A stretch of 51,322 bases of DNA from Smithella sp. (GTDB lineage Bacteria; Desulfobacterota; Syntrophia; Syntrophales; Smithellaceae). The stretch lies in contig JBDKUG010000191.1 of the NCBI GenBank assembly GCA_039679815.1, positions 1-51,322 of the forward strand, written 5' to 3'. Below the pieces are notes generated by a model. That model had not been told where the DNA came from. It made no database searches and saw only the letters and a program-made list of their open reading frames with translations. Numbering within the stretch: position 1 is the stretch's first letter; every line of letters starts with the position of its first letter. Positions 8,349-46,563 of this stretch are shown piece by piece. The translations under genes and the position numbers were made by a program.

Positions 8349-8365
8349 TTTACTAAAGGGTGAAG

Positions 8366-9721: not shown

Positions 9722-9878
9722 AATAATTTTACATGTTTATTCCACAAGGGTTCTTTATTGAAAGAATTGAAATTAAAAAAGAATTTATAGCAATCAACAT
9801 ATCCACAGGGCTTATTACTATTACTAATTATTTATATATGAAAAAAATAAGAGAGAAATAAGAGAATGGGAGGAGAGG
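9722..9878. other. candidate oriC / DNA-unwinding region in the dnaA-dnaN spacer
   Basis: 157-nt non-coding spacer. ATATCCACA (9799-9807) has one mismatch to the DnaA box, and TATTCCACA (9738-9746) is a relaxed match. These are followed by a very AT-rich run, CTTATTACTATTACTAATTATTTATATATGAAAAAAATAAG (9811-9851). Confidence 0.45.
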
Positions 9879-13452
<3,574 letters not shown>

Positions 13453-13524
13453 CAGTAACAGGAAAGAAAACGATTCAACCGGCTGTTTTGGCCGTTTTGT
13501 TGTCACAAGAGAGGAAAGAAGAAA

Positions 13525-16035
13525 ATGGAACGAGATATCCACCATAAGCAAACCCTGGTGAATATAGAAGATGAAATGAAGAAATCCTACATGGATTACT
13601 CCATGAGCGTTATCATTGGCCGGGCGATTCCAGATGTGCGTGACGGCCTGAAGCCGGTGCACCGGCGGATATTGTACGCTATGTATGAAATGGGCTATCG
13701 TCACAATAAGCCCTACAAGAAATGCGCCCGCGTTGTCGGCGATATCATGGGTAAATATCATCCGCATGGTGATGCGGCCATTTATGACACGCTGGTGCGG
13801 ATGGCGCAGGATTTTTCTCTGCGTTATATGCTTATTGATGGACAGGGCAACTTCGGTTCGATTGATGGCGATCCTCCAGCAGCCATGCGTTACACGGAAA
13901 GCCGTCTGGCGCGCATTTCCGACGAGGTGATGGCCGATCTGGAAAAAGATACGGTCGATTACGTGCCCAACTATGATGAATCCCTTACAGAGCCATCGAT
14001 TCTCGCGACACGCCTTCCGCTTTTACTGTTGAACGGGACATCAGGTATCGCCGTCGGCATGGCGACCAACGTCCCGCCCCATAATTTAAAAGAAATCATC
14101 AACGGCACCATCGCGCTCATCAACAATCCCAAGATGATTATTGAAGAGCTGATGAAGTACATTCCCGGACCGGACTTTCCGACGGCCGGTTTCATCAACG
14201 GCCGTGAGGGAATTCTCTCAGCCTATAAAACAGGGCGCGGCATTATCCGTGTCCGGGCGCGGGCGCTGATTGAAAAGAATGCCCGCAACGACAAGGAAAC
14301 AATAGTTGTTACCGAGCTGCCGTATCAGGTCAATAAAGCGGTCCTGATTGAAAAAATAGCCGAACTGGTGCGTGACAAGAAAATAGCCGGAATTTCTGAT
14401 TTGCGCGACGAATCAGACCGGGAAGGCATCCGCGTCGTGATTGAGCTCAAGCGTGATGAGAATTCTGCTATTATTCTAAATCAGCTTTATAAATTCACCC
14501 AGATGGAAGTCTCGTTCGGCATTATCATGCTGGCTATTTCTGAAAACCGTCCGCAGGTTTTCAATCTCAAAGAAGTTCTCGAGAAGTTTATTGCTTTTCG
14601 CCAGGAAGTAGTTGTCCGCCGCACGCAGTTTGATCTGGCGCGCGCAAAAGAACGGGCGCATATTCTGGAAGGCTATATCATAGCCTTGAACAATATCGAT
14701 GAAATCATTAAAGTCATCAAGGCGTCCAAAAACCCAAACGAAGCATCGGTGGCGTTATGTGCGAAATTCAATTTGTCGGAGATTCAGGCCAAAGCCATTC
14801 TGGAAATGAGACTGCAACGCCTTACCGGACTGGAAAGAGACAAGATTGATGCCGAATATGCGGAAGTGACTTCATTGATTGCAAAGCTGGCCGGCATCCT
14901 GGCTGACCCGAAGAAAGTCCTGCAGGTGATTATTGACGAACTCAATGATATAAAAAATAAATATGGTGATGAACGCCGCACGGAAATTGTCGCCAGCACC
15001 GAAGACATCAATATTGAAGACATGATCGTAGAAGAAGATGTGGTGGTCACGATATCTCACGCCGGATACATCAAGCGCAACGCGGTCAGTTTATATAAGA
15101 GCCAGCACCGCGGGGGACGGGGCAAAGTCGGCATGGGGACCAAAGAAGAGGACTTTGTAGAAAAGATCTTTATCGCCTCCACGCATCATTACCTTTTAGT
15201 CTTCACCAGCGCGGGCAAAGTGCACTGGCTGAAAGTGTATCAGATTCCGCAGGCAGGCCGGGCCGCCAAAGGCAAGGCAATGGTTAATCTGGTCAGCCTG
15301 GCGCCCGGAGAGCGCGTCAGCGCGACCCTGCCAGTCAAGGAATTTGTTTCGGATAAATTCGTAGTGATGGTAACCAGAAAGGGCATTATCAAAAAGACCG
15401 ATCTGGCGGCTTATTCCAATCCGCGGGCAGGGGGCATTATCGCAATATCCATAGACGATGATGACGAACTGGTAGATGTTCAGCTGACTAACGGTGATCA
15501 GGATATTTTCCTCGCGACGAAACTCGGCATGGCGATTCGTTTCCGGGAAGATGATGTCCGCGATATGGGCCGGACGGCACGCGGCGTGCGCGGCATCAAT
15601 CTGGATGAGGGTGACGACGTTATCGGTGTGGATATTCCCGCTCAAAACACTTACATGCTGACCATTTCGGAAAACGGTTTCGGCAAATGTACACCGATTG
15701 ATGAATATCGTGTGCAGTCACGAGGTGGCAAGGGCACCATCAACCTGAAAACGGTGGCAAAGATCGGCAATGTCTCCGGTGTTTTGCAGGTGCAGGGCGA
15801 AGAGAACATCATGCTCATCAGCAATGCCGGCAAGGTCATCCGGCTGAAGGTGCAGGAGGTCCCGATTAATCATCGTGTGACCCAGGGCGTCAAACTCATT
15901 GACCTGGAGCCGGAAGAAAAACTCGTCGGCGTCGCCCGCACAACGCAGGAAGCCGAAGGCCCGGATGACGGAGCTAACGGCGATGATGAGACGGATGTGA
16001 CGACAGAAGAAAACAGCACACCGGAAGAAGACTAG
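13525..16035 (+). CDS. gyrA: DNA gyrase subunit A
   Basis: 836-aa ORF with ...[29 protein letters not shown]...[22 protein letters not shown]...MRYTE.RL... and an acidic C-terminal tail. Confidence 0.97.
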
Positions 16036-16054: not shown

Positions 16055-16084
16055 AAAAAGGGCGCTTCGAGGCGCCCTTTTTTA
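16055..16084 (+). terminator. intrinsic terminator after gyrA (A-run/T-run flanked, potentially bidirectional)
   Basis: AAAAAGGGCGC-TTCGAG-GCGCCCTTTTTTA lies 20 nt after the gyrA stop. Confidence 0.7.
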
Positions 16085-16161
16085 TGGCAGTTTGTGCATT
16101 CCGTCCATGTGTGAAGACAAGGCTTCTTGTTGATGCCGGCATAATAGGTTATACTACCTGT

Positions 16162-16599
16162 ATGCTGAACTACACATTTTTTGATCACACCGCGGATATA
16201 GGGGTTGAAATATTCGGGCGCACGAAGAAAGATCTGTTTGCCCATGCCGTCCATGCTTTGTTTGATATCATGATTCAGACCGCCGCCCATAAAAGCGGGA
16301 AAAGCCAGGAGGCAAAAGGGAGGCAAATCATTAAGAAGGTAGACGGGGCGGACGTGGAGGACCTGTTCATTAACTTTTTGCGCGAGCTTCTTTACCTGTT
16401 CAACGGCACGGGATGGGTGGTTGATCACTGTGAGATGATCGAATGCAGAAATACAAGACTCGTTGCGACGTTATGGGTTGAGCCATACAATAAAAAAAAA
16501 CATTCAATGAAAACAGAGATCAAGGCGGTGACTTACTCCGGCTTAAGCGTTAAAAAGTTTAAATCAGGCTGGATGGCCAGGGTGATTTTCGATGTCTGA
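16162..16599 (+). CDS. archease (RtcB activator/chaperone family)
   Basis: The N-terminus MLNYTFFDHTADIGVEIFG.TKKDLF..A..AL is the archease signature. Its stop overlaps the rtcB start. The ORF track extends upstream to 16084. Confidence 0.8.
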   Translation: MLNYTFFDHTADIGVEIFGRTKKDLFAHAVHALFDIMIQTAAHKSGKSQEAKGRQIIKKVDGADVEDLFINFLRELLYLFNGTGWVVDHCEMIECRNTRLVATLWVEPYNKKKHSMKTEIKAVTYSGLSVKKFKSGWMARVIFDV

Positions 16600-18034
16600 A
16601 ATTAAACTGGAAAAACTCGATGAAAACAGATGGCTTCTTCCGCAGACCGGCTTGATGCGTGTGCCGGGGATCATCTACGCCAACGACAAAATCCACGATC
16701 TGCTTCAACACGACGAAAGCACCAGACAGGTGGCCAACGTTGCCCATCTACCGGGCATCGTCAATTTCTCGCTGGCCATGCCGGATATTCACTGGGGGTA
16801 CGGTTTTCCCATAGGCGGGGTGGCGGCTTTTGATCTGGACGGGGGCGTAGTGTCGCCGGGCGGCGTGGGTTACGACATTAACTGCGGCTGCCGCCTGATG
16901 GCTACGGGGCTTGCCCTTGACGATATCCGGGGGAAAATAAAGGATCTGACTGCCGCTTTGTATCAGCGCATTCCGACGGGTGTGGGTTCCACAGGCTATG
17001 TCAAGCTCTCCGGTAAAGATCAGAAAAAAGTGCTTGAGGAAGGCGCAAAATGGGCTGTGCGAAACGGTTTCGGATCCCTACAGGACCTGGAAACAACGGA
17101 AGACGGCGGCTGTCTGAACGGTGCGGATCCGGAGCAGGTTTCAGCGCGGGCTCTCGAGCGCGGCAAGCAGCAGCTCGGCACACTGGGTTCCGGCAATCAC
17201 TTTCTGGAAATTGAAGTCGTGCAGGACATTTATGACGAACAAGCGGCCGGCGCGTTTGGGCTGCGCAAGGGGCAGATTGTCGTCATGATCCATAGCGGGT
17301 CGCGGGGGCTGGGCTACCAGATCTGCGATGATTATCTGGCGCTTATGGTGAAGCATCAATCGGAAACCGGCATCGCACTGCCGGACAGGCAGCTGGCCTG
17401 CACCTATCTGGCCTCGCAGCGTGGGAAGAATTATCTGGCGGCCATGGCCTGCGGTGCCAATTACGCCTGGGCCAACCGGCAGATTCTGATGCACCTCACG
17501 CAGGAGGTTTTTGAAAAAACGCTGAGAATTGCGCCGCGTGAACTGGGGATGCGACTGGTCTATGATGTTTGCCATAACATCGCCAAAATTGAGTCGTTCA
17601 AAATTAATGGTGTCGAGAAAAAACTGTGTATTCATCGTAAGGGTGCGACACGGGCTTATCCTGCAGGTCACGAAGCAGTGCCCGCAAGATATAAAAGTGT
17701 CGGCCAGCCCGTGCTGATTCCCGGGGATATGGGAGCTGGTTCTTATATATTAGTGGGTCAGGAAAAAGCCATGCAGGAGACCTTTGGCAGCGCCTGTCAT
17801 GGCGCAGGACGGGTCATGAGCCGAACCCAGGCCATCAAGACCAGCCGGGGCCGTTCCATCAGCCGCGAACTGGCCGACCAAGGTGTTTTGGTGATGGCCG
17901 GCAGCAAAGGAACATTAGGCGAAGAAATGCCGGAAGCCTATAAGAATTTGAACGACGTCGTCCAGGTGGTTCACGATGCGGGAATTGCCCGTAAAGTGGC
18001 AAAACTCAAATCAGTGGCCTGCATAAAAGGTTGA
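16592..18034 (+). CDS. rtcB: RNA 3'-phosphate/5'-OH ligase RtcB
   Basis: 480-aa ORF with ...LPGIVNFSLAMPDIHWGYGFPIGGVAAF...GGVGYDINCG...GSGNHFLEI...HSGSRGLG...GSACHGAGR... Confidence 0.95.
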   Translation: MSEIKLEKLDENRWLLPQTGLMRVPGIIYANDKIHDLLQHDESTRQVANVAHLPGIVNFSLAMPDIHWGYGFPIGGVAAFDLDGGVVSPGGVGYDINCGCRLMATGLALDDIRGKIKDLTAALYQRIPTGVGSTGYVKLSGKDQKKVLEEGAKWAVRNGFGSLQDLETTEDGGCLNGADPEQVSARALERGKQQLGTLGSGNHFLEIEVVQDIYDEQAAGAFGLRKGQIVVMIHSGSRGLGYQICDDYLALMVKHQSETGIALPDRQLACTYLASQRGKNYLAAMACGANYAWANRQILMHLTQEVFEKTLRIAPRELGMRLVYDVCHNIAKIESFKINGVEKKLCIHRKGATRAYPAGHEAVPARYKSVGQPVLIPGDMGAGSYILVGQEKAMQETFGSACHGAGRVMSRTQAIKTSRGRSISRELADQGVLVMAGSKGTLGEEMPEAYKNLNDVVQVVHDAGIARKVAKLKSVACIKG

Positions 18035-21166: not shown

Positions 21167-22705
21167 GTGGCAAGAAGCTTTCCATTTTTCAAAAAAGGAA
21201 AAAATCCGGCATTAAAATTAAATTATTCTTTACGGAAACACACCGGTTGTGTTACGGAGAAACAAAGGGTGCGGTGTGAATATCATGACGCAATTACAGA
21301 AATTTCCACAGGTTTTAGAAAATTGAAACTCACGATCAGCCGCAAATTGTTGCTGGGTTATTTGTTCATGGCTTTTTTGACCATACTGGCCAGCGCTTAT
21401 GCGTTGTTCAGCCTGCAGCGACTCAGTGGTGTGGCGTATAATCTTGCCACACAGAAATTTGTTCTGGTTGAAAATTCAAAAACGCTGATGGATACACTTT
21501 TGGCCCAGGAAGGTGTTGAAAAGAAATACCTGATCCTGAAAGACCCCCTTCTGGAACAGATCTTCTGGCAGCGCAGCAGTGAATTTAATGAGGTGCTGAC
21601 GGGGATGCACAATGGAAGTCTTGACCCGAAAACAAAAAAAACCGTTGATGAACTGGACAAACTGCAGAATCGCTTAAAGAAGTTGTTTTCAGAAGAAATT
21701 GTTTTGCTGAAAAGCGGCAAAATGCCGGAAGCGCAGGCCCTTTCCGATATGTCGGCCAGAGCCACGGTTGATGAGATGGCGTCAAAGATCAGATATATCC
21801 AAATCAATGTGGATCAGGCCATCACTGATGAAATGAACAGGATTGCCCAGCAGGGTATAAAAGATACGCACATGACCATTGGCATTGCCTTGTTCAGCTT
21901 GATCCTGGGCATTGCCTTCGCGCTGATCCTGACTCGCAATATTTCCAAGCCTCTGAAACAGCTGCAAACGGCCGCGGGAATCATTGCGGAAGGCAACCTG
22001 GATCATAAAATAGAAGCAAGACGGGATGATGAGATTGGCGCGCTGGCCAAATCTTTTGCCGAAATGACCCAGAGGCTCAAAGAGCTGGAAGAGCTGAACC
22101 TCGATGCCAGCCCGCTTACCGGTCTGCCGGGAAACCTGGCTATAGAAAACAGGATCGAACAGATGATGGCGGAGGGGAAAAGATTCTCTCTGTGTCAGGT
22201 GGATCTTGATAATTTCAAGCCGTTTGCCGATAATTATGGATATGCATGGGGCAGCGAAGTGATCAAAGAAGTAGCCAGTTTGCTTACAGGATACATCAGC
22301 GACGAGCAGATGAAAGGAATATTTATCGGCCATATCGGCGGAGATGATTTTGTCGTCATCGGCAATCCGGATCAGGTCCAGAGCATCTGCCGGAAACTGG
22401 TGGTTGATTTTGAAAAGAGCATCATGAGTTATTACGCAAGAGAGGATGCGGAAAACGGATATTTTATCGGGAAAAACCGTCAGGGAATGATGCAGAAATT
22501 CCCGCTAATTACCATTACGGCGGCGATTGTCACAGATGATGGATCGCGTTTTAAAAATCCGCTGGATATGGCCAGAATGGCCGCGGAGTTGAAGGAATAC
22601 GCAAAAATGTTGCCCGGCAGCAATTATGTAACGGAACAAGATGTAGAAAAGAGACGATTATTGCAACCGAAGACCCTGCAAAGCACGCTGGAGCTTGACT
22701 CATGA
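21167..22705 (+). CDS. membrane sensor with HAMP domain and a divergent GGDEF-like domain (GGDDF)
   Basis: Two hydrophobic segments flank a ~150-aa sensor region. A HAMP-like segment (...ISKPLKQLQTAAGIIAEGNLDHKIEARRDDEIGALAKSFAEM...) is followed by PLTGLPGN...VDLDNFKPFADNYGY...GHIGGDDFVVIG. The start codon is uncertain (GTG 21167). Confidence 0.7.
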   Translation: MARSFPFFKKGKNPALKLNYSLRKHTGCVTEKQRVRCEYHDAITEISTGFRKLKLTISRKLLLGYLFMAFLTILASAYALFSLQRLSGVAYNLATQKFVLVENSKTLMDTLLAQEGVEKKYLILKDPLLEQIFWQRSSEFNEVLTGMHNGSLDPKTKKTVDELDKLQNRLKKLFSEEIVLLKSGKMPEAQALSDMSARATVDEMASKIRYIQINVDQAITDEMNRIAQQGIKDTHMTIGIALFSLILGIAFALILTRNISKPLKQLQTAAGIIAEGNLDHKIEARRDDEIGALAKSFAEMTQRLKELEELNLDASPLTGLPGNLAIENRIEQMMAEGKRFSLCQVDLDNFKPFADNYGYAWGSEVIKEVASLLTGYISDEQMKGIFIGHIGGDDFVVIGNPDQVQSICRKLVVDFEKSIMSYYAREDAENGYFIGKNRQGMMQKFPLITITAAIVTDDGSRFKNPLDMARMAAELKEYAKMLPGSNYVTEQDVEKRRLLQPKTLQSTLELDS

Positions 22706-23795: not shown

Positions 23796-24353
23796 TTAGT
23801 TTGTTTTAATGATGGCGAGAAGATGCTTCTCAATTTCCTGTTTCGGTTGGGCGCCCACAAGGCGTTCCACGAGTCTTCCTTCCCGGAAAAAAAGCAAGGT
23901 GGGAATGCTGCGAATTCCATACTGGGTTGCGGTAACCGGATTTTCGTCCACATTCAGTTTGACGACTTTGACGCCGTTGGCATAATCGGACGCGAGTTCG
24001 TCAATGACAGGAGCAAGGCTTTTGCAGGGGCCGCACCAGGGGGCCCAGCAATCGACAAGAACGGAAGTTTCAGTGGTCAGCACTTCACGGGTAAACGAAT
24101 CATCGGTGACATCGACAGGTTTGATGTCCTGCTTGGCGATAACAAGCGGTTCACCGCATTTGCCGCAAAGCGGTTTTGCATTGAGGCGCTCTTCAGGCAT
24201 CCGGTTTTTCGTTCCGCATTTCAGGCATCGGATAATCAGGTCATCCAGGGGAGCGTGGCAATTGCCGCATGTTGGACGGCCCTGAAACTTCTGTTTCGGT
24301 ATGCGATTTTTGGTACCGCAGTTCAGGCAGCGGATAATGACATTGTCCGGCAT
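23796..24353 (-). CDS. trxC: thioredoxin with two N-terminal zinc-ribbon modules (TrxC/Trx2-like)
   Basis: Active site WAPWCGPCK. The N-terminus carries [14 protein letters not shown]...[10 protein letters not shown] and then [14 protein letters not shown]...[10 protein letters not shown]. Confidence 0.85.
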
Positions 24354-25098: not shown

Positions 25099-26364
25099 TC
25101 AGACCTTGAATCTTTTTAATCCTATAAAATCCAGTGTTGCAAAATAGTCCTTCACCGTTTCGGCACGGCGTATGGGTACCACGGACCCGTCTTCTCTGAG
25201 AAGCAGCTCGGCGGAACGGAGTTTGCCGTTATAATTGAAGCCCATGGCATGGCCATGCGCTCCCGCATCATGGATTACCACAATATCACCCGGTGCAAGT
25301 TTGGGTAGCTTGCGGTCAATGGCAAATTTGTCGTTGTTTTCGCAAAGTGATCCGGTAACGTCATACATAAAATCATAGGGATGCTTTTCTTTGCCCAAAA
25401 CGGTGATGTGATGATAAGCGCCATAGAGAGCCGGCCGCATCAGGTTGGCCATGCAGGCACCGAGACCTGCGAATTGTTTGTAAGTGTCTTTGATATGCAG
25501 GACTTTTGAAATGAGATAGCCATAGGGCCCTGTGATGTAACGTCCGCATTCGGTGAAGATTTTCAGAGGTGCAAAACCGCCTCCGACAATAATTTGGTCA
25601 TATTTTTCCTTGATGCCCCGGTTCATGGCCGGCAGGTCAATGCGATCCTGCTCGGGCCGGTAGGGGATGCCGATCCCTCCGCTCAGATTGGCGAATTCGA
25701 AACGGATATTCAGAGAACGGGAAATATCAACAATCACTTTAAAAAGAATATCAGCTGTTTCGACAAAATAGTTCGGATCAAGTTCGTTAGAGGCCACAAA
25801 GATGTGAATACCGAAACGTTTGATACCCTTATCCCTGCAGATGCGGTAGCCCTCAAAGAGCTGGTCGCGCGTAAATCCGTACTTGGATTCTTCAGGATGG
25901 CCGATAATCACATTGCCTTTCTTAAGCGGGCCGGGATTGTAGCGGAAACAGATCATGTCGGGAAGACCGGCATTTTTTTCCAGGTATGCGATATGGGAAA
26001 AGTCGTCCAGATTGATCGTAGCGTTCAGCTTCCTTGCTTTAACAAATTCTTCGGCCGGAGTGTCATTGGAGGAAAACATGATTTCCTCACCGGTGAAGCC
26101 GGTTTTTTCCGCCATCACCAGTTCCGCCAGTGAACTGCAGTCCGCGCCGAATCCTTCGGCATGAAGAATTTTCATGATATATGGATTGGGACAGGCCTTG
26201 ACTGCGAAGTATTCTTTGAATCCCTTATTCCATGCAAAGGCCTTTTTGAAGTCGCGCGCATTCTTCCGGATGGCTTTTTCATCATATATATGGAAGGGAG
26301 TCGGATATTTTTCGATGATTGTGTCCATCTGTTTTTTGGTAAAGAACAGTCTTTTTTCCGGCAT
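25099..26364 (-). CDS. lysA: PLP-dependent group IV decarboxylase, diaminopimelate decarboxylase-like
   Basis: Contains ...YPTPFHIYDE.AIR.N...F..AF......KEYFAVKACPNP.I...L...G.GADCSS..EL...SGGIGIPY...CENND.F... The ATG at 26364 has a GGGAGA RBS. Substrate was not verified. Confidence 0.7.
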   Translation of the reverse strand: MPEKRLFFTKKQMDTIIEKYPTPFHIYDEKAIRKNARDFKKAFAWNKGFKEYFAVKACPNPYIMKILHAEGFGADCSSLAELVMAEKTGFTGEEIMFSSNDTPAEEFVKARKLNATINLDDFSHIAYLEKNAGLPDMICFRYNPGPLKKGNVIIGHPEESKYGFTRDQLFEGYRICRDKGIKRFGIHIFVASNELDPNYFVETADILFKVIVDISRSLNIRFEFANLSGGIGIPYRPEQDRIDLPAMNRGIKEKYDQIIVGGGFAPLKIFTECGRYITGPYGYLISKVLHIKDTYKQFAGLGACMANLMRPALYGAYHHITVLGKEKHPYDFMYDVTGSLCENNDKFAIDRKLPKLAPGDIVVIHDAGAHGHAMGFNYNGKLRSAELLLREDGSVVPIRRAETVKDYFATLDFIGLKRFKV

Positions 26365-26455
26365 ACATTTGTCTCCCGCATTCAATTTGTCATGAACATT
26401 TACGGTAAAACCTTGAATTTATCAATGGTATTTTTAAAAACGACCGAAAGCATAT

Positions 26456-27457
26456 TTATTGGAAAAAATAATGAACGGAAAAGTAAATGGCTGCGGAGAT
26501 AACGGCGGAGATGGGTATGGTCAAAAGCCAGGCCCAAATGATATTACCAGCAACGCCCCAGCGGACGGCGGAAAGCCTTTTAGTGGCGCCGACACCGACA
26601 ATTGCGCCGGTGATGGTGTGGGTGGTGCTGACCGGAATACCCGCCACAGTTGCACCGATGATTGAGCAGGCAGCAGCTGTTTCGGCGCTGAAACCGCCGA
26701 TGGGTTCAAGCTTGGTTATTTTAGTTCCCATTGTTTTCACGATTCGCCACCCGCCAAGCATGGTGCCCAGAGAAATCATCGAATAGCAGACGATAATCAC
26801 CCAGACGGGAATATGAAAGGTATTGCCAAGCAACCCTTTGCTGAAAAGCGCCATGGCGATGATCCCCATGGTTTTTTGCGCATCATTCATACCGTGTGAT
26901 AACGAATAAACCGCTGCGGATAAGAGCTGAAGTTTCCGAAAAATAAAGTCCGATTTAGCAATAGTGGAATTGCGACTCAGATTCATGGCCAGAACCATGA
27001 AAACAAAACCCAACGCCATGCCGAGTGCCGGTGAAACAATGATAAAAAGCGTTGTTTTCGTAATGCCCGACCAGACCAGAGTTCCAGTGCCGGCTTTGGA
27101 TACCGCCGCTCCGATCAGGCCGCCAATCAATGCATGCGACGAACTGCTGGGCAATCCGTAATACCACGTCACAATATTCCAGATGATTGCCCCGCCCAGA
27201 GCGGACAGAATGACAAGATTATCGACAATGTCGATATGGATGATGCCTTTGCCGACGGTGTGGGCGACCTCCGTGCCTACAAAAAAAACGGCAGCAAAAT
27301 TAAAAAAAGCAGCCCAGATGACAGCATGTTTTGGTGAAAGAACACGAGTGGACACAACAGTGGAAATGGAATTGGCTGAATCATGAAACCCGTTTAGAAA
27401 ATCAAAAATCAGCGCAATTGCCACCAGGACAAAAACAAATGCCATCGAATCAAGCAT
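26456..27457 (-). CDS. inorganic phosphate transporter, PiT family
   Basis: 333-aa polytopic ORF with N-terminal ...FDFLNGFHDSANSI.T.VSTR.L and a second ...SHGMNDAQKTMGII... repeat. Confidence 0.85.
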   Translation of the reverse strand: MLDSMAFVFVLVAIALIFDFLNGFHDSANSISTVVSTRVLSPKHAVIWAAFFNFAAVFFVGTEVAHTVGKGIIHIDIVDNLVILSALGGAIIWNIVTWYYGLPSSSSHALIGGLIGAAVSKAGTGTLVWSGITKTTLFIIVSPALGMALGFVFMVLAMNLSRNSTIAKSDFIFRKLQLLSAAVYSLSHGMNDAQKTMGIIAMALFSKGLLGNTFHIPVWVIIVCYSMISLGTMLGGWRIVKTMGTKITKLEPIGGFSAETAAACSIIGATVAGIPVSTTHTITGAIVGVGATKRLSAVRWGVAGNIIWAWLLTIPISAVISAAIYFSVHYFFQ

Positions 27458-28070
27458 GTTTCAGGACGATCCCTTCCACGGTGTTGGACACATCTTCACA
27501 AACATCAATTGCTTCTTCGATCCGCTCAAAGATTTCTTTCCACTTAATCAACTCAATGGCGTCTTTTTCTTTGATGAAGAGATCGGTAATGATGCTTCTT
27601 AAAACAACATCGCCGGCATTTTCCAGGGTGTTGATTTCCACGCAACCGTCAAGAATCATTTTGGAGTTTTTCATGTCGCGCAAACCGTGAATGATCTCTT
27701 TGATTTTTTTTATGGCCTGAAAAAGGATTTCCGCCTGCTTGATGATTTCATCATCCGGCTTTTTGACCTTATACATGTGAATGCGGATGGCGGTGGCTTC
27801 GATGACGTCCATAATGCTGTCCATCTTATTGACCAGGGCATAAATATCTTCACGGTCGATCGGCGTCAGGAAGGTCTTGTGCATTCTTTCATACGTTTTA
27901 TGCGTAATGCCATCCGCTTCATGCTCAATTTCTTTGAGACGGGAAACTTTTTCGGCGGAATAATCGCGATTTTTGGTCATTTCAAGAAAGAATTGGCCGC
28001 CTTCTTCAATTTTGTCGGCCAGCTCTTCAAAGTAATTAAAGAAATTTTCTTCTTTAGGAAACAGGCGCAT
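27450..28070 (-). CDS. DUF47/TIGR00153 PhoU-like putative phosphate transport regulator
   Basis: 206-aa helical ORF starting MRLFPKEENFFNYFEELADKI... Its 3' end overlaps the PiT start by 8 nt, the usual PiT partner arrangement. Confidence 0.75.
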   Translation of the reverse strand: MRLFPKEENFFNYFEELADKIEEGGQFFLEMTKNRDYSAEKVSRLKEIEHEADGITHKTYERMHKTFLTPIDREDIYALVNKMDSIMDVIEATAIRIHMYKVKKPDDEIIKQAEILFQAIKKIKEIIHGLRDMKNSKMILDGCVEINTLENAGDVVLRSIITDLFIKEKDAIELIKWKEIFERIEEAIDVCEDVSNTVEGIVLKHA

Positions 28071-28198: not shown

Positions 28199-28684
28199 TT
28201 ATTTAAGGACTTTGGAGTAAATAATTTTACTGTCACCGGGAGCATAAAAGTCTTTGAGAGTTGCTTCGGCAATATATCCGCAGTTTTGATAAAAACGCTG
28301 AGTAGATGCGTATTGAGAGCGCGAAGATGTTTCTGCATACAGGCGTTTGCCGTCCATGCCGCGGATGAGGTCTTCTGTTTTTTGCAGGAGCATTGTGCCC
28401 AGTTTTTTGCCGCGTGAGACTTCAGACACGGCAATCCAGTAAAGATCGTAGCTGGCAGCGGTGGCCGGTATCAAGCCGTAACAGGTATATCCGACAACCT
28501 GACCATGATTTTCGGCAAACAGGAATTGATAGGAACTCCGCTGTCCGTTTTCAAGCCGATCTGTGGCCAGTTCACATGCCAGTTCCACTTCCGCCGTGGA
28601 AAAGAAGCCGCTCGACTGAACGATATTTAAGATAGCCCCCAGATCTGAAGGTACTATCTCCTGTCTGTAAAGCAGGGCGATCAT
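28199..28684 (-). CDS. GNAT-family N-acetyltransferase
   Basis: 161-aa ORF. The acetyl-CoA binding segment ...IAVSEVSRGKKLGTMLLQK.E... matches the R/Q-x-x-G-x-G/A pattern. It is the last gene of the kamA operon. Confidence 0.75.
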   Translation of the reverse strand: MIALLYRQEIVPSDLGAILNIVQSSGFFSTAEVELACELATDRLENGQRSSYQFLFAENHGQVVGYTCYGLIPATAASYDLYWIAVSEVSRGKKLGTMLLQKTEDLIRGMDGKRLYAETSSRSQYASTQRFYQNCGYIAEATLKDFYAPGDSKIIYSKVLK

Positions 28685-28714
28685 AAGGATCCTCCGTTAT
28701 TGGGAATACGGATG

Positions 28715-29698
28715 CTATTGGATGGCGCTCCGAATGATTTTATCGATCGCATCAACATAACCGATCGAGGCCTGTTCCAGGGCGGCGGCAAACCCCGCAT
28801 CCGGAGACAGGCAGGGATTGGCATTAATTTCCAGAACAAGTGGATTCCCCTGTTGATCAATGCGGAAATCTATGCGGGCGTATCCGCGCAGACCGAATAG
28901 ATGCCAGATCGCAAGAGCAATATCCCTCAAGGAGCCAACGAGGGCGGTATCATGAGGACCCATATCAAAAGAGCGTATTGTATTGTCATATTCAAATGAG
29001 TCTTCAACCCATTTGGCACGGTAATCGAGAAATTTTAATTTTCCTGCCGGGAAATTCTGAAAAAGGATTTCCGCAGCCGGCAGAATCTGTACATCCCCGC
29101 CGGCAGCCATAAGGGTGATATTGAATTCACGGCCGTCAATGTAGGCTTCGGCAAAACAGTCCATGCCGAGAGTTTGCCCGCGATTCTGCAGGGTGTTGAG
29201 CAGGATTTCACGGTTTGTTGTCTGAAGGACGGCTCCGCCATCAAGACCCACGGAAGCATCCTCCCAGGACGGCTTTACAATATAAGTATCGGTATCGGTA
29301 TGACCGATAGCGATGCCTTCGGAGGTCAGCCATGGCGGTGTGGCAATGCCGGCACCCTGCAGCATTTGTTTCGCGAGCGGTTTATTGGATGTCAAAAACA
29401 TGGCATCCGTCCTGCAGCCCGTGTAGGGAATCTGCAGGAAATCCAAGAGCGCTGTGGCGAAGTAAACCATGCTGCCCCTTCCGGCAAAGGTTTCTACAAG
29501 ATTGAACACGACATCCGGCTGAAGAGCGCGGAGTCTGGCGATCGTTTCATTGAAATCCATCCCAAAGGGAAGCATGACTGTTTCGTAGCCCAGCGAGAGC
29601 GCCGCCTCGCTGACGCTTTCGGCCTGCTTCAGGCAATCGAGCTCGTCAATGCCCGCGTTCGGGGCCACGTCTGTATGCAAAATGACAATTCGTTTCAT
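28715..29698 (-). CDS. D-alanine--D-alanine ligase-like ATP-grasp enzyme (paralogue 1)
   Basis: 327-aa ORF with ...VVFNLVETFAGRGSMVYFATALLDFLQIPYTGC...NK...K..L...GI.TPP...IVKPSWEDASVGL...REF.I.L...YARIDFR.D..GNP.VLEINANP... Confidence 0.75.
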   Translation of the reverse strand: MKRIVILHTDVAPNAGIDELDCLKQAESVSEAALSLGYETVMLPFGMDFNETIARLRALQPDVVFNLVETFAGRGSMVYFATALLDFLQIPYTGCRTDAMFLTSNKPLAKQMLQGAGIATPPWLTSEGIAIGHTDTDTYIVKPSWEDASVGLDGGAVLQTTNREILLNTLQNRGQTLGMDCFAEAYIDGREFNITLMAAGGDVQILPAAEILFQNFPAGKLKFLDYRAKWVEDSFEYDNTIRSFDMGPHDTALVGSLRDIALAIWHLFGLRGYARIDFRIDQQGNPLVLEINANPCLSPDAGFAAALEQASIGYVDAIDKIIRSAIQ

Positions 29699-29738
29699 GA
29701 GGGATTCTTCCGTCCGCCGGAATTTTGAGTTCGGCCTT

Positions 29739-30770
29739 TCATGTCATAATGATTCCGGCGCGCTTCAGTGCTGAATTCAGGATGTCGGTAATGAGACGGT
29801 CATAGGGGATACCTGCAAGTCTGCAAAGAATGGGCAGATCAGAGCGGATTGGATTCAGGCCCGCCAGAGAATTGACTTCCATAAAATGAGGAAGGCCGTC
29901 AGCATCAGAGCGCAGATCAATGCGTCCCCCGTCTTTCAACCCGAGGCCCCGCCAGGCCCGTAGTGATATTTCCATGGCCTGCCTGGCTTCGGCATCATCC
30001 ACGGCGGCATATTGCACGAGGTTTTCGTAATGCTCCTTGTTTTCGTAGGAGTAAGCATTCTGTTCGGCATCGGGGTTCAGGAGAACCTCCATGGCGCCGA
30101 GGGCTCTGGCTTCTTTTCCCGTTCCAACGATTCCCACGGTGAACTCCCGTCCGGGCAGAAAGGTTTCCACCAGCACCGGCTGACAAAATGTCTTGAGAAG
30201 GTTTACGCAAACCCTGTGCAGGTCTTCGGTGTTGTTGATCTTGGAAAGAGCTGTGATGCCCTTGCCCGTTCCTTCCGCGACGGGTTTGGCAAAAAGGGGA
30301 TAGGGAAGTGAAACGAGGCCGATATCCTCCGGATCGGAAACAACATCAAAGTCGGGTGTGGGGATTCCCAGGTCGCGCACAACATGCTTGGTCATGCCCT
30401 TGTGAAGGGTCAGGGCCTGCCCGAGGGCGTCGGAGAAGGTGTAGGGGATTTTGTAGGCATCCAGAAGCGCGGGAACCTGCGCCTCCCTTCCGAAGCCGTG
30501 AAGGCCCTCGGCGATGTTGAAGACAAGATCCCAGCGATCGCCTGCGGCAAGACGACGGGTCAATGATTGAATATGGCCGATCCGGTCGGTCGCATAACCG
30601 TTTTTCAAAATGACTTTTTCAATGGCTTCGATGGTATCAGGCTTGTCGAACTCAGCAGTTTCTTCCAGGCTGTAGCCTTCATGCAGATAGTCGTCGCGCA
30701 AATCGTAGGTCAGGCCGACCGTTATTTTTTGAGGGGTGCTGGTTGACGAACAGTTTATGTTACCGGACAT
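29739..30770 (-). CDS. D-alanine--D-alanine ligase-like ATP-grasp enzyme (paralogue 2)
   Basis: 343-aa ORF with ...LVFNIAEGLHGFGREAQVPALLDAYKIPYTFSD...HKGMTKHVVRDLGIPTPDF...FAKPVAEGTGKGI...REFTVGIVGTG...GGRIDLRSDADGLPHFMEVN... Confidence 0.75.
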   Translation of the reverse strand: MSGNINCSSTSTPQKITVGLTYDLRDDYLHEGYSLEETAEFDKPDTIEAIEKVILKNGYATDRIGHIQSLTRRLAAGDRWDLVFNIAEGLHGFGREAQVPALLDAYKIPYTFSDALGQALTLHKGMTKHVVRDLGIPTPDFDVVSDPEDIGLVSLPYPLFAKPVAEGTGKGITALSKINNTEDLHRVCVNLLKTFCQPVLVETFLPGREFTVGIVGTGKEARALGAMEVLLNPDAEQNAYSYENKEHYENLVQYAAVDDAEARQAMEISLRAWRGLGLKDGGRIDLRSDADGLPHFMEVNSLAGLNPIRSDLPILCRLAGIPYDRLITDILNSALKRAGIIMT

Positions 30771-30784
30771 AAATATTCACGATC

Positions 30785-32095
30785 CTAATGGATATCTTTC
30801 GATTCGGCGTGATTGTCCGGATAGCGGAAAATATTACCTTCGTAATTGCGCATCATCAGATCGCCCTTGTCCCAGCCGATGGCATATTCGGGAAGAAGCG
30901 GAATCTTACCTCCTCCGCCGGGGGCATCAACGACATAAGTTGGCACGGCATATCCGGTTGTGTGACCCCGCAGGCCCTGGATGATTTCCAGACCCTTGCT
31001 GATAGGTGTGCGAAAATGAGAGGAGCCGGGAATCGGATCGCATTGATACAGGTAGTAGGGGCGGACCCGAATCTGCAGGAGGCCGTGCACCAGCCGGGTC
31101 ATTGTGGAGACCGAGTCATTAATGCCGGCGAGCAGAACCGTCTGGCTGCCCAGGGGAATGCCGGCATCGGCCAGGCGAATGCAGGCGGCGCTCATCTCGG
31201 GGGTCAGTTCGTCGGGATGCGTGATGTGGATGCTCATCCAGAGAGGGTGATATTTTTTTAGCATGGAAACAAGCGTCGGCGAAATGAGCTGCGGCATGAC
31301 AACGGGTGCCTTGGTGCCGATTCTTACCAGATCAACATGTGGAATGTCCTTGAGCCTTGAAAGCAGCCATTCGAGCTTATCGTCGGGCAGAGTGAGGGGG
31401 TCGCCGCCGGACAGCAGCACATCGCGAATATTCGGATTCGATTCGATGTAGGCCAGGGCTTTTTCCCATTTGGCCGTGTCAATAAAACATTGATGCTGCC
31501 GTCCGAAGATTCGGGATCGGGTGCAATAACGGCAATACGTCGAGCAGATATCAGTAACAAGGAACAGAACGCGGTCGGGATAACGATGGATGATGCCGGG
31601 AACGGGAGAGTCGGCATCTTCACAAAGAGGATCTTCTTCTTCGCCTTTGGTATGCAGGCATTCGTCAACCACCGGGACGACGGTGCGGCGAAGCGGATCA
31701 GAAGGATCCTGCACGGAAAGGAGACTGGCGTAGTAAGGGGTAATGGCGACAGGAAGATCACCCGACGGGTGCATCATTGCCTGTCGTTCATTGTCGGAAA
31801 GATGAATAATGGCATCCAGAGAATGGACAGCGCGGATCGCGTTTTGAAACTGCCACCGCCAGTCAAACCATTCAATACGGCTGATCTCAGGATAATGTTT
31901 TTTGCGGAAGGCGCGTGATCGGGGTGAATCTTTGAAAGGGAAATAAAGTCTCTCCGGCTTTGATTTTGCCAGGGAAGGTTGCTGTCTGTTCATGGGCAAC
32001 GAAAACAGCCTCGTTGCTGAGTCTTGAATCGCAGCAAGGTCGGTCGTTGGACCAGGAGGTTCCGCCTCCTCATTAAACAGCGTTTCGTTCTCCAT
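30785..32095 (-). CDS. kamA: KamA-family radical SAM amino acid 2,3-aminomutase (lysine 2,3-aminomutase-like)
   Basis: Radical SAM motif CSTYCRYCTRS, with ...WFDWRWQFQNAI... upstream and ...RVRPYYLYQCD...G..HFRT... downstream. These are typical of KamA/AblA/EpmB-type enzymes. Substrate was not determined. Confidence 0.85.
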   Translation of the reverse strand: MENETLFNEEAEPPGPTTDLAAIQDSATRLFSLPMNRQQPSLAKSKPERLYFPFKDSPRSRAFRKKHYPEISRIEWFDWRWQFQNAIRAVHSLDAIIHLSDNERQAMMHPSGDLPVAITPYYASLLSVQDPSDPLRRTVVPVVDECLHTKGEEEDPLCEDADSPVPGIIHRYPDRVLFLVTDICSTYCRYCTRSRIFGRQHQCFIDTAKWEKALAYIESNPNIRDVLLSGGDPLTLPDDKLEWLLSRLKDIPHVDLVRIGTKAPVVMPQLISPTLVSMLKKYHPLWMSIHITHPDELTPEMSAACIRLADAGIPLGSQTVLLAGINDSVSTMTRLVHGLLQIRVRPYYLYQCDPIPGSSHFRTPISKGLEIIQGLRGHTTGYAVPTYVVDAPGGGGKIPLLPEYAIGWDKGDLMMRNYEGNIFRYPDNHAESKDIH

Positions 32096-32467
32096 TCATT
32101 CTCCTTCCGGAACAATGTCTCCGTAAAAAAAACCAACCAAGAAAATACATTGTTTTTTTTGAATTTACGCACACAGAAAAATTTGTCAACAATTATTTTG
32201 CATTTTGGGGGAAAAAGTGAAAAAAATTTTTAAGAAAAAGTCGAAACTGTATCTGGTGATGCAAATGATGCGGCATAATGTTAAGAAGCAAAAAGAAAAG
32301 AGTCCGGAGAAAATCTCATTGTCACCGCAGCGGGAAGCATCAGGCGCAAAGGTAAGTGACGGTGATCTTCTTCATGGTCAAATGCAGGCGGGCAAAGGAT
32401 ATGGCGCGACGCATTCTCCAGGAGGCCCACTGGAAGATTTGAAATAAAGAAAAGCAGGAGACAGCAA

Positions 32468-44664: not shown

Positions 44665-46563
44665 CTAGTCTTCTGGTTTCAAATCAGCCGTCATTTCCTG
44701 CTTCTTCAGCATAATCAGCACAGCTGAGATCGCGCCTTCGGTCATGCCGGGGATTCGCTCCATCTGGCCGATAGTGGCGGGTGCGATACGGGTGAGCTTG
44801 GTCTTGAGTTCATTGGAAAGGCCCGGAACCTCGGAGTAATCGAAATCCGGGGGAATCTTCTTTTTTTCCAGGTCCTTCAGCTTTTTTGTTGCTTCGAACT
44901 GGCGCTTGATATAGCCTTCGTACTTGGTTTCGATTTCTATCTGTTTTTTGACAAAAGGATCAGGCTCGGATTCCCATCCGGGAAAACCGCTCAAATCATC
45001 ATAAGCAATTTCATGCCTTTTCAGAAGGTTATACAGATTCGTAGCCTGGGTAATCGGCGGCGAAGATAATGCATTGAGCTTTTCATTGATTTGAGCCGAG
45101 GGTTTGACGGACGAAATCTTTAGGTGCGTGATGCCCTGATCGATTTTCTTCATTTGATCCTGAAGATCCAGATAATACGCCCGGTCGATCAAACCCAGTT
45201 CACAGCCCTTAGCCATCAGGCGGATGACGGCGTTATCTTCCCTCAGAATCAGGCGATATTCAGCGCGTGAGGTAAACATCCGGTAGGGTTCATCCACGCC
45301 CCGCGTGACCAGGTCATCAATCATTACCGCCATGTATGCTTCAGAACGATCCAACACAAAAGGCGGACCTTCCTGCAGGGCGCGAACGGCGTTGATTCCC
45401 GCCCAGATCCCCTGTGCAGCCGCTTCTTCGTAACCGGATGTGCCGTTGATTTGACCGGCCAGATACAGGCCGGATACTAATTTTGTCTCCAGCGTCAGCT
45501 TGAGCTGGCTGGGCTGAACAAAATCATATTCGATGGCATAGGCAGGCCGCATGATCTCTGCCTGTTCCAGGCCCCTGACGCTGTGGACAATCTGATATTG
45601 GAGTTCCAGCGGCAGGGAGTTGCCCAGACCCTTGGCGTAAACTTCCTGGGTTTCGAGGCCCTCATGTTCCAGGACCACAGGGTGACTCAGACGGTCGCCA
45701 AAGCGCATGACTTTGTCTTCCAGAGATGGACAGTAGCGGGCGCCGACTCCTTTAATAGCGCCGGAATAAAGCGGAGAATGCTGAATGTTGTTTCGGATCA
45801 CCCTGTGCGTTTCCGGAGATGTCGCTGAAAAATATGAAGGCAGACGCTCCGGCCGCAAATTTCTGGTAGCAAAGGAAAAAGGTTCCGGCGCGGGATCACT
45901 ATCCTGCCGCTCCAGGCAGGAAAAATCAATAGATGAGGCGCGCAGCCTGGGCGGTGTTCCGGTTTTCATCCGTCCCATTTCAAAGCCGAGGCTTTTGAGA
46001 TGGTTGGCAAGGCCTTCCGATGCCAGCTCTCCCGCGCGTCCCGACGGGGTTTGTGACGAACCGATGTGAACCAGCCCGTTCAGAAAAGTTCCCGTGGTGA
46101 TAATGACTTTTTTTGCACCATAGAAATAGCCGCTGCTGTCCCTTGCACCTTTGACTGTGCCGTCTTCGATGACAAGGTTTTCCACCATGGCCTGGCGCAG
46201 GTGAAGATTTTGCTGATTTTCCACAGTGGCTTTCATGGCCAGGCGGTAGAGCTGTTTATCGCACTGCATTCTCGTCGATTGAACCGCAGGTCCCTTGGAA
46301 GCGTTCAACAATCGGAAATGCACGGCGGTTTTGTCTGTCACCCTGCCCATTTCACCGCCAAGAGCATCAATTTCCTTTACAAGCTGGCTTTTAGCCAGAC
46401 CGCCGATGGCCGGATTGCAGGACATGAGTGCTATGGAATCGAGATTGATGTTGAACAGCAGCGTCCGGCAACCCATGCGCGCCGCGGCAAGCGCAGCCTC
46501 GCAGCCGGCATGCCCGCCGCCGATAACCAGAATGTCGTATTGATCTGACACGTCTTTCTCCAC
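44665..46563 (-). CDS. mnmG: tRNA uridine 5-carboxymethylaminomethyl modification enzyme MnmG (GidA)
   Basis: 632-aa ORF with ...[26 protein letters not shown]......I...[19 protein letters not shown]... Confidence 0.95.

Follow-up and report, generated by a model that had tools for sequence, protein, structure and literature searches.

The enzyme classes considered here are known from several described systems. In the AblA/AblB system, which occurs in methanogens and some bacteria, a lysine 2,3-aminomutase (LAM) of the KamA family and an acetyltransferase make N-epsilon-acetyl-beta-lysine, which serves as an osmolyte; AblB-type enzymes are much longer than 161 amino acids (aa). EpmB, another KamA-family mutase, makes beta-lysine that is then ligated in an ATP-dependent reaction by EpmA, and streptothricin acetyltransferases acetylate the amine of beta-lysine. 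ATP-grasp ligases, the superfamily to which the D-alanine–D-alanine ligases (Ddl) belong, make dipeptide antibiotics such as bacilysin and also include protein-tailing and polymer-forming members, and Ngg and AsnO together make N-acetylglutaminylglutamine amide (NAGGN). Here we describe an operon that unites a KamA-family aminomutase, two Ddl-fold ligases and an acetyltransferase of the GNAT family in a 51,322-nucleotide (nt) stretch of DNA from Smithella sp. (contig JBDKUG010000191.1); this whole stretch is called the window below. On the evidence that follows, we consider the odds somewhat better than even that this is a dedicated four-enzyme operon for the synthesis of a soluble small molecule derived from beta-lysine.

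A four-gene operon conserved across phyla

Gene calls were based on the list of open reading frames (ORFs) of the window and their translations. The operon and its candidate promoter are arranged as follows.

32162..32189, minus strand: candidate sigma70-type promoter, TTGACA-16-TAAATT, some 67 nt upstream of the ATG of KamA
30785..32095, minus strand: KamA-family radical S-adenosylmethionine (SAM)/pyridoxal phosphate (PLP) aminomutase, 436 aa, containing CSTYCRYCTR
29739..30770, minus strand: ligase 1, Ddl-fold ATP-grasp carboxylate-amine ligase, 343 aa
28715..29698, minus strand: ligase 2, second Ddl-fold ATP-grasp ligase, 327 aa
28685..28714, minus strand: 30-nt ligase 2/GNAT junction left by deletion of a DMT_6 gene, retaining the GNAT ribosome-binding site GGAGG
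28199..28684, minus strand: GNAT N-acetyltransferase, 161 aa

The gaps between the genes are 14, 40 and 30 nt in the order of transcription. These coordinates and gaps are identical to those in a preliminary description of the window, which had predicted an acetylated beta-amino-acid peptide pathway, and its gene identities are borne out by Pfam and NCBIfam matches above the domain or family cut-offs. An AAGGAG ribosome-binding site lies ahead of the KamA ATG and there is a plausible ribosome-binding site before each of the other three genes. No internal terminators or promoters within the operon exceed the shuffled expectation. The sigma70-like promoter matches 10 of the 12 consensus positions, a consensus match only; such sites are no more numerous in the region than in shuffled sequence, and it is the position of this one that suggests it serves the operon. 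There is no sigma54 −24/−12 element upstream of the window KamA gene (best match 6/10), and Rfam at gathering thresholds gave zero RNA elements or riboswitches across the window.

A scan of one genome per species with the ligase 1 alignment found a ligase 1 relative in at least 589 species genomes, and the best 80 of these loci were inspected, with phyla taken from the record titles and the window proteins compared with the loci by tblastn. At least ten phyla are represented among the 80, which come from Thermodesulfobacteriota, Bacteroidota, KSB1, Acidobacteriota, Planctomycetota, Bacillota, Fibrobacterota, WOR-3, Bdellovibrionota, Sumerlaeota, Marinimicrobia and Alphaproteobacteria. The order KamA, ligase 1, ligase 2, GNAT on one strand recurs in most of 83 independent loci. 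Because order and strand recur in so many loci and phyla, the arrangement is far beyond chance. Linkage was counted in those loci that do not belong to the Smithellaceae-like set and have sufficient flanking sequence; identities are to the window protein.

KamA (upstream): linked to ligase 1 in 47/52 loci, median identity 61%
Ligase 1: reference gene, median identity 62%
Ligase 2 (downstream): linked to ligase 1 in 45/52 loci, median identity 43%
GNAT (downstream): linked to ligase 1 in 34/40 loci, median identity 47.5%

The four-gene neighbourhood is thus conserved, with linkage to ligase 1 of 85–90% outside Smithellaceae. Ligase 1 is the best conserved of the set, at 60–67% identity across phyla. 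This unequal conservation of the four genes argues against a single recent horizontal sweep and suggests stronger constraint on the mutase and ligase 1. KamA and ligase 1 also occur alone, without ligase 2 and GNAT, in three loci (L026, L059 and L064). In Desulfovibrio loci the operon genes overlap and are translationally coupled. Peat, fen, groundwater, a lake with fresh water, anaerobic reactors, a sulfidic cave and marine biofilms are among the sources named for the loci, a spread of habitats that does not point specifically to salt.

One locus on a complete Bacteroidota chromosome (OY969556.1; L046:7161-10502) has ligase 1 and ligase 2 without an adjacent KamA gene, and its GNAT is split into ORFs of 78 and 92 aa. 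This copy of the operon may be decaying or rearranged.

The aminomutase

The mutase scores 346.3 bits against the KamA family model TIGR00238 (cut-off 199.2) and has Radical_SAM and LAM_C domains, with the CxxxCxxC iron–sulfur motif present as CSTYCRYC. Its best equivalog is the AblA-type lysine 2,3-aminomutase, TIGR03820, at 490.9 bits, which is below the cut-off of 525.4. The orthologues at a Bacteroidota and a Planctomycetota locus are also under this cut-off (464.4 and 463.2 bits), so that the cluster-linked subfamily falls short of the AblA model in three phyla. Each alternative model is farther from its own cut-off than this: glutamate 2,3-aminomutase (TIGR04368) gives 411.4 bits against 650, arginine 2,3-aminomutase (TIGR04468) 382.5 against 600 and EpmB 254.8 against 369.3. 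By this EpmB score, and with no recurrent lysyl-tRNA synthetase-like or efp neighbour in the 83 loci, the mutase is not EpmB, a grouping which the preliminary description had named, along with that of the ligases with cell-wall Ddl, as fatal to its prediction.

That description had also proposed that the substrate-binding residues be inspected. The mutase aligns to the Clostridium subterminale LAM (PDB 2A5H) with E = 3e-134. Counted along this alignment in 2A5H numbering, the window protein keeps the iron–sulfur ligands C125/C129/C132, the arginine for the substrate carboxylate (R134), the two aspartates that bind the epsilon-ammonium group of lysine (D293 and D330) and the PLP lysine K337. 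The same residues are invariant in all 73–76 aligned cluster-linked orthologues, the two aspartates in all 76. R134, D293 and D330 are therefore all of the lysine type. Glutamate 2,3-aminomutase reportedly has Lys and Asn at the positions of the two aspartates. As the lysine-binding residues of LAM are all kept and are invariant in the cluster orthologues, the mutase is of the lysine type and is predicted to convert L-lysine to beta-lysine. The beta-glutamate and beta-arginine products that had been offered as alternatives are disfavoured by the low scores and by retention of both aspartates.

The two ligases

Both ligases match Dala_Dala_lig_C (PF07478) well above the cut-off of 24 bits (ligase 1, 87.9; ligase 2, 66.6). 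The best Ddl models give 142.7 bits for ligase 1 and 112 bits for ligase 2 against a cut-off of 243, and the best PDB matches have E = 4e-26 and E = 4e-15, respectively. The two proteins had been described as paralogues. The paralogy stands, but identity between them is only 27%, so they are ancient paralogues rather than the products of a recent duplication. A ligase 1 model made with AlphaFold2 has a mean predicted local distance difference test score (pLDDT) of 73 and a predicted template-modelling score (pTM) of 0.77, with the substrate and lid loops at low confidence. Ddl structures were its only neighbours in Foldseek (template-modelling score 0.62–0.77, 18–27% identity). The cyanophycin synthetase model gave 35.4 bits against a cut-off of 877, and no fusions of ligase 2 were found among its 120 best relatives.

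We aligned 70 ligase 1 and 54 ligase 2 sequences to Escherichia coli DdlB, whose sequence is identical to that of 2DLN, and use DdlB numbering. The residues for ATP, magnesium and acyl-phosphate (K97, K144, E180, E187, K215, R255, D257, E270 and N272) are all invariant in the ligase 1 sequences. Ligase 2 keeps eight of the nine in every sequence, and at the remaining position, E270, one of the 54 has D. The D-Ala-binding set is E15, S150, Y216, S281 and L282, and of these S150, Y216 and L282 differ in both ligases, while ligase 2 has also lost E15 and S281. In ligase 1 the replacements S150T, Y216E and L282D are invariant or nearly so across the orthologues, two of them (Y216E and L282D) being acidic. 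In ligase 2 the replacements E15D, S150A, Y216W, G276C and L282G are invariant or nearly so and leave an uncharged pocket.

Taken together, these data predict that both proteins are active Ddl-fold carboxylate-amine ligases with two different specificities, neither of them that of Ddl. The acidic pocket of ligase 1 would take a cationic substrate such as beta-lysine. With scores below the Ddl cut-offs and family-wide replacement of the D-Ala-binding positions, the ligases are not cell-wall Ddl, a grouping raised in the preliminary description as part of the way in which the prediction might fail.

The acetyltransferase

The GNAT scores 46.6 bits against Acetyltransf_1 (PF00583; cut-off 20.7), and its RGKKLG sequence fits the acetyl-CoA loop motif of the family, R/Q-x-x-G-x-G/A. 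In NCBIfam only RimI was matched (E ≤ 0.001), and at 41.9 bits this hit is weak, the cut-off being 86.4. In the PDB the GNAT matches 2R7H with E = 2e-37 and about 47% identity. This structural-genomics entry is named "putative D-alanine N-acetyltransferase of GNAT family" and is without an assigned function. The window GNAT is an orthologue of 2R7H. The identity between the two equals that between the window GNAT and the cluster-linked GNATs of other phyla, and a protein 99% identical to 2R7H sits inside the same operon in Desulfovibrio-type contigs. There the reading frames overlap, and a sigma54 activator gene precedes KamA, which is followed by ligase 1, ligase 2 and GNAT. The nearest named relative is an Oleidesulfovibrio, and we take the source of 2R7H to be Desulfovibrio (now Oleidesulfovibrio) alaskensis G20, a genetically tractable strain; the operon is present in an organism close to that strain. 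The predicted substrate of the GNAT is a free amine on the product or an intermediate.

Accessory genes and regulation in other lineages

The neighbouring ORFs of the 83 loci were clustered and those that were recurrent or abutted the operon were scanned. Among their products is a fusion of about 590 aa, with a GNAT-like N-terminal domain followed by a domain of the histone deacetylase family. Its gene shares the strand of the operon in 11 loci, and Desulfovibrio mangrovi has it too (L032:10002-11777, L070:10145-11902, L086:9629-11386 and 9 more loci). The best PDB matches of the deacetylase domain are acetylpolyamine amidohydrolases (E = 2e-71 to 2e-58), and no NCBIfam family matched the fusion.

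A fusion of an acetyltransferase-like domain and a deacetylase within a biosynthetic operon is unusual and uncharacterised; it is not encoded in the window.

In 9 Smithellaceae loci a DMT_6 gene (PF04342/DUF486), which encodes a membrane protein, separates ligase 2 from GNAT. Genes for a MarC/NAAT transporter and an AzlC-like protein follow KamA–ligase 1 pairs. In one locus each, a major facilitator superfamily (MFS) transporter gene follows the GNAT, an M20 peptidase/deacylase ORF overlaps the GNAT stop codon and an ammonium transporter gene adjoins the operon. These companions are sporadic. The deacetylase, the M20 deacylase and the small-molecule transporters fit an N-acetylated small amine or peptide.

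Alignment of the window with two 96% identical relatives that carry the DMT_6 gene (L022:9290-9667 and L004:4040-4416) shows that in the window lineage about 350 nt have been cleanly deleted at 28685-28714. The deletion retained the GNAT ribosome-binding site, and a new TAG stop ends ligase 2 one codon earlier. As several other Smithellaceae are also without the gene, it is a presence/absence polymorphism.

Genes for sigma54 activators lie upstream of the operon in 9 loci in addition to the Desulfovibrio ones. They are NtrC-like with a weak or degenerate receiver domain (L084:3874-5310, L086:3857-5293 and cluster 12, which has members in 9 loci, for example L035:4357-5826). They occur in Desulfovibrio and in further Thermodesulfobacteriota, where KamA is preceded by −24/−12 promoters that match them. 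A sigma54 −24/−12 element matching at least 9 of 10 consensus positions is present upstream of KamA in 16/75 loci, compared with 11/430 control windows. Smithellaceae, with the window among them, lack this element and seem to have switched to a sigma70-type promoter.

Beyond Smithellaceae no small ORF is conserved that might be the gene for a carrier protein or a precursor peptide. Apparent small-ORF families proved to be alternate-frame artefacts among close relatives, and two "conserved" ORF clusters (19 and 20) were antisense artefacts over the ligase genes. A recurrent "PstB-like" neighbour was discarded as a mix of unrelated ABC ATPases. A role in anti-phage defence was also rejected, since PADLOC gave zero matches for the four operon proteins and the deacetylase fusion.

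Proposed pathway

In the pathway that we propose, the radical SAM/PLP aminomutase starts from L-lysine and makes beta-lysine (3,6-diaminohexanoate), whose configuration is probably 3S, like that of the product of LAM/AblA-type enzymes. Ligases 1 and 2 would then form two different amide bonds by an acyl-phosphate mechanism. Ligase 1 most likely handles beta-lysine and joins it to a first partner, given its acidic pocket and its persistence beside KamA in loci that lack ligase 2 and GNAT. Ligase 2 would attach another partner; the partners may be amino acids or (polyamine-like) amines. The GNAT would acetylate a remaining free amine, most likely the terminal epsilon-amine, since the operons of about 12 lineages carry a deacetylase of the acetylpolyamine amidohydrolase type. 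This deacetylase points to a terminal alkyl-amine, which in beta-lysine means the epsilon-amine, and to acetylation that can be reversed. Such a pathway would yield a di- or tripeptide of beta-lysine that is N-acetylated, or an amide in which the partner is polyamine-like.

Synthesis appears to be on demand, from a sigma54 promoter with an adjacent activator in some lineages and a sigma70-like promoter in the window, and the conditional sigma54 control suggests that a stress or a nutrient signal induces it. The compound also seems to undergo transport and recycling, judging from the DMT_6, MarC, AzlC and MFS transporters and from the deacetylases of the acetylpolyamine amidohydrolase type and M20 deacylases. 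These companions speak for a small molecule that is soluble, as does the lack of a carrier or substrate protein. A protective or nitrogen-rich cytoplasmic solute is favoured over an antibiotic. We give even chances to the broader proposal that a reversibly N-acetylated beta-lysine peptide or amide, made by two dedicated Ddl-derived ligases, is a common physiological compound (a protective solute, or one serving nitrogen or cation balance) of anaerobes in at least ten phyla.

Several points weigh against this pathway. The structure of the product, including the choice between di- and tripeptide, the amine that is acetylated and an osmolyte role, is purely what we infer, and the roles given to ligase 1, ligase 2 and GNAT are deduced from residue changes and linkage. 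The shortfall of the mutase against the AblA model (490.9 against 525.4 bits) leaves formal room for another basic substrate. The pockets of the ligases were read from the alignment, the substrate loops of the AlphaFold2 model being of low confidence. Conservation of 60–67% is unusual for a small-molecule ligase, so the partner of ligase 1 could be a macromolecule. Among the at least 589 loci, distant members beyond the best 80 may be in other contexts. Finally, co-transcription of the four window genes is presumed from their layout, and there is no clear terminator after the window GNAT, so the phosphate genes that follow (PhoU_div/PHO4) may share the transcript.

Alternative explanations

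The ligases might attach beta-lysine to a macromolecule or form oligomers on it. This could be a protein (modified as elongation factor P (EF-P) is by beta-lysylation, or by tailing of the RimK/LysX type), a cell-wall precursor, or an acetyl-capped beta-lysine homopolymer acting as a cyanophycin-like nitrogen store. The unusual conservation of ligase 1 is consistent with this, protein-tailing and polymer-forming enzymes do exist among ATP-grasp proteins, and the sigma54/NtrC-type control in some lineages would suit nitrogen storage, as would the ammonium transporter adjacent in one locus. However, no conserved carrier, substrate protein or small ORF accompanies the operon, neither efp nor an EpmA homologue recurs among the neighbours, and the mutase is far from EpmB. 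The ligases have the fold of Ddl, a family of small-molecule dipeptide enzymes, rather than that of RimK or cyanophycin synthetase, and the accessory genes encode small-molecule transporters and deacylases. We therefore regard a macromolecular acceptor as unlikely.

A secreted antimetabolite or antibiotic-like beta-lysine peptide is, in our judgement, quite unlikely. In such a system the GNAT would provide self-resistance or pro-drug acetylation, and activation of the compound during export would fall to the deacetylase. Exporter-type neighbours (MarC/NAAT, AzlC-like, DMT_6 and MFS), a pair of acetylating and deacetylating enzymes and the precedent of ATP-grasp ligases in bacilysin-type synthesis all speak for it. 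Nevertheless, the operon lies in the core chromosome about 20 kb from dnaA and is syntenic across Smithellaceae. It is conserved in at least 589 species, with KamA and ligase 1 under strong purifying selection, in contrast with biosynthetic clusters that are patchy and fast-evolving. The transporters are sporadic and dispensable, as the clean loss of DMT_6 in the window illustrates, and no immunity or target-duplicate gene is present.

The operon might also be a classical AblA/AblB system for N-epsilon-acetyl-beta-lysine in which the ligases are unrelated passengers or cell-wall Ddl paralogues. AblA is the best equivalog of the mutase, the active site is of the lysine type and a GNAT is in the same operon. 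Synthesis by AblA/AblB has also been assumed in related anaerobes (PMC3543383, PMC11201294). On the other hand, no AblB-type model matched the GNAT at E ≤ 0.001, the GNAT is much shorter than AblB-type enzymes and the mutase is under the AblA cut-off in three phyla. Both ligases always lie between mutase and GNAT, often with overlapping frames, and it is a ligase that is best conserved. In addition, KamA and ligase 1 occur without the GNAT in several loci, and the ligase pockets are not Ddl-like. This explanation is very doubtful.

Least probable of all is that the mutase acts on glutamate, arginine or ornithine to give a different beta-amino-acid peptide: its position under the AblA cut-off and its glutamate (411 bits) and arginine (382 bits) scores would allow this, but such scores are expected of any KamA-family member and are far under their cut-offs, and D293/D330, which would be compatible with arginine or ornithine, are invariant in the 76 cluster-linked mutases and differ from the Lys/Asn of glutamate 2,3-aminomutase.

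Genomic surroundings of the operon

By the names of its closest protein relatives, the organism belongs to Smithellaceae (Syntrophales). The window spans core chromosome, with dnaA, dnaN, gyrB and gyrA at 8360-16035 and mnmG/gidA at 44665-46563, about 30 kb away. It is a chromosomal replication-origin region, and G+C is lowest (38.7%) at 8–10 kb, around dnaA. The genes nearest to the operon on the GNAT side are as follows.

27450..28070: PhoU_div (DUF47)
26456..27457: PHO4 phosphate transporter
25099..26385: diaminopimelate-decarboxylase-like ORF with a TTG start; starting from the ATG at 26364 instead shortens the protein by 7 residues

Between the GNAT and PhoU_div, the nearer of the two phosphate genes, lie 128 nt in which no terminator is evident. 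The PhoU_div/PHO4 pair accompanies the operon across Syntrophales (L029 and L042 included) and not in other orders, and a phosphate link was therefore rejected as synteny of the Syntrophales. The diaminopimelate-decarboxylase-like protein scores 285.5 bits against lysA, just under the cut-off of 297.9. The preliminary description had seen in this gene a possible supply of lysine for the pathway; the suggestion is not upheld, as this synteny too is confined to Syntrophales and is gone outside that order.

Three further genes of the window deserve mention. The gene for the RNA ligase RtcB (16592-18034) is preceded by an overlapping ORF of 171 aa (16084-16599) that might encode an archease-type partner. 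A HAMP-GGDEF protein (21167-22705) has GGDDF in place of GGDEF and a partial domain match (profile positions 5–110 of 161), and may be a degenerate or regulatory diguanylate cyclase. A thioredoxin (23796-24353) has two tandem N-terminal zinc-ribbon repeats, with CxxC...CxxC duplicated, and its syntenic homologue in L001 carries the Zn_ribbon_Thio2 annotation twice.

Significance and comparison with known systems

The preliminary description knew of no characterised pathway with this gene set, and we also found no published description of it; coverage of subscription journals in our search was limited, so a published account may exist. Public annotations of the relatives of the operon proteins are generic, as are the names in NCBIfam, PADLOC and the PDB. 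Each enzyme class is familiar. Their combination is new and probably uncharacterised, and the predicted metabolite is new.

If the proposed pathway is correct, hundreds of anaerobe species, among them syntrophs, sulfate reducers, Bacteroidota, Planctomycetota and Acidobacteriota, encode a metabolite absent from current metabolic maps. The current labels "lysine 2,3-aminomutase", "D-alanine--D-alanine ligase" and "GNAT" invite wrong inferences in metagenomes, namely lysine fermentation, cell-wall synthesis and osmoadaptation by acetyl-beta-lysine. Ligases 1 and 2 would define two new functional ATP-grasp families, the substrate range of the Ddl fold would extend to beta-amino acids and 2R7H would gain a function. 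The finding is directly testable, because the operon occurs in an organism whose GNAT is 99% identical to 2R7H.

The operon resembles AblA/AblB in having a lysine-type KamA mutase with a GNAT and a predicted beta-lysine intermediate, and the likely end product is again an acetylated, charge-balanced lysine derivative. It differs in the two ligases between mutase and GNAT, which are more conserved than the GNAT, in a GNAT of a different, 161-aa family, in a mutase below the AblA cut-off and in a distribution that is not salt-specific. With Ddl and VanA both ligases share the three-domain ATP-grasp fold, the catalytic residues and, presumably, small-molecule dipeptide chemistry. They differ from Ddl/Van in their low identity (18–27%), scores below every cut-off, replaced D-Ala positions and the absence of mur/fts context. 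BacD/YwfE, RizA, TabS and LdmS are likewise stand-alone ATP-grasp enzymes that make dipeptides from unprotected amino acids, sometimes beside exporters, but they belong to other ATP-grasp subfamilies and have no KamA partner. We know of none among the four that uses beta-lysine.

As in the synthesis of NAGGN, an acetyltransferase and ATP-grasp activity would give an N-acetylated small peptide, and a peptidase or deacylase is often nearby. In contrast with the NAGGN system, the activities are on separate proteins, the ligases are of the Ddl type rather than the cyanophycin-synthetase type and a radical SAM mutase would supply a beta-amino acid; no AsnO-like amidotransferase recurs among the clustered neighbours. 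The precedents of AblB and Ngg, on which the preliminary description had drawn, are thus analogies and not homologues: the GNAT does not resemble AblB, nor do the ligases resemble Ngg. In EpmB/EpmA, too, a KamA-family mutase makes beta-lysine before an ATP-dependent ligation. Here the ligase is an ATP-grasp enzyme rather than a lysyl-tRNA synthetase paralogue, there is no efp nearby and genes for acetylation and deacetylation are part of the system. Finally, about 12 loci pair a small GNAT with a deacetylase in the manner of SpeG-type GNATs and acetylpolyamine amidohydrolases, the differences from the polyamine system being the extra N-terminal GNAT-like domain of the operon deacetylase and its setting in a beta-lysine/ligase operon. 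By analogy, the operon appears to work like a hybrid of AblA/AblB, ATP-grasp amino-acid ligases and solute synthesis of the NAGGN type.

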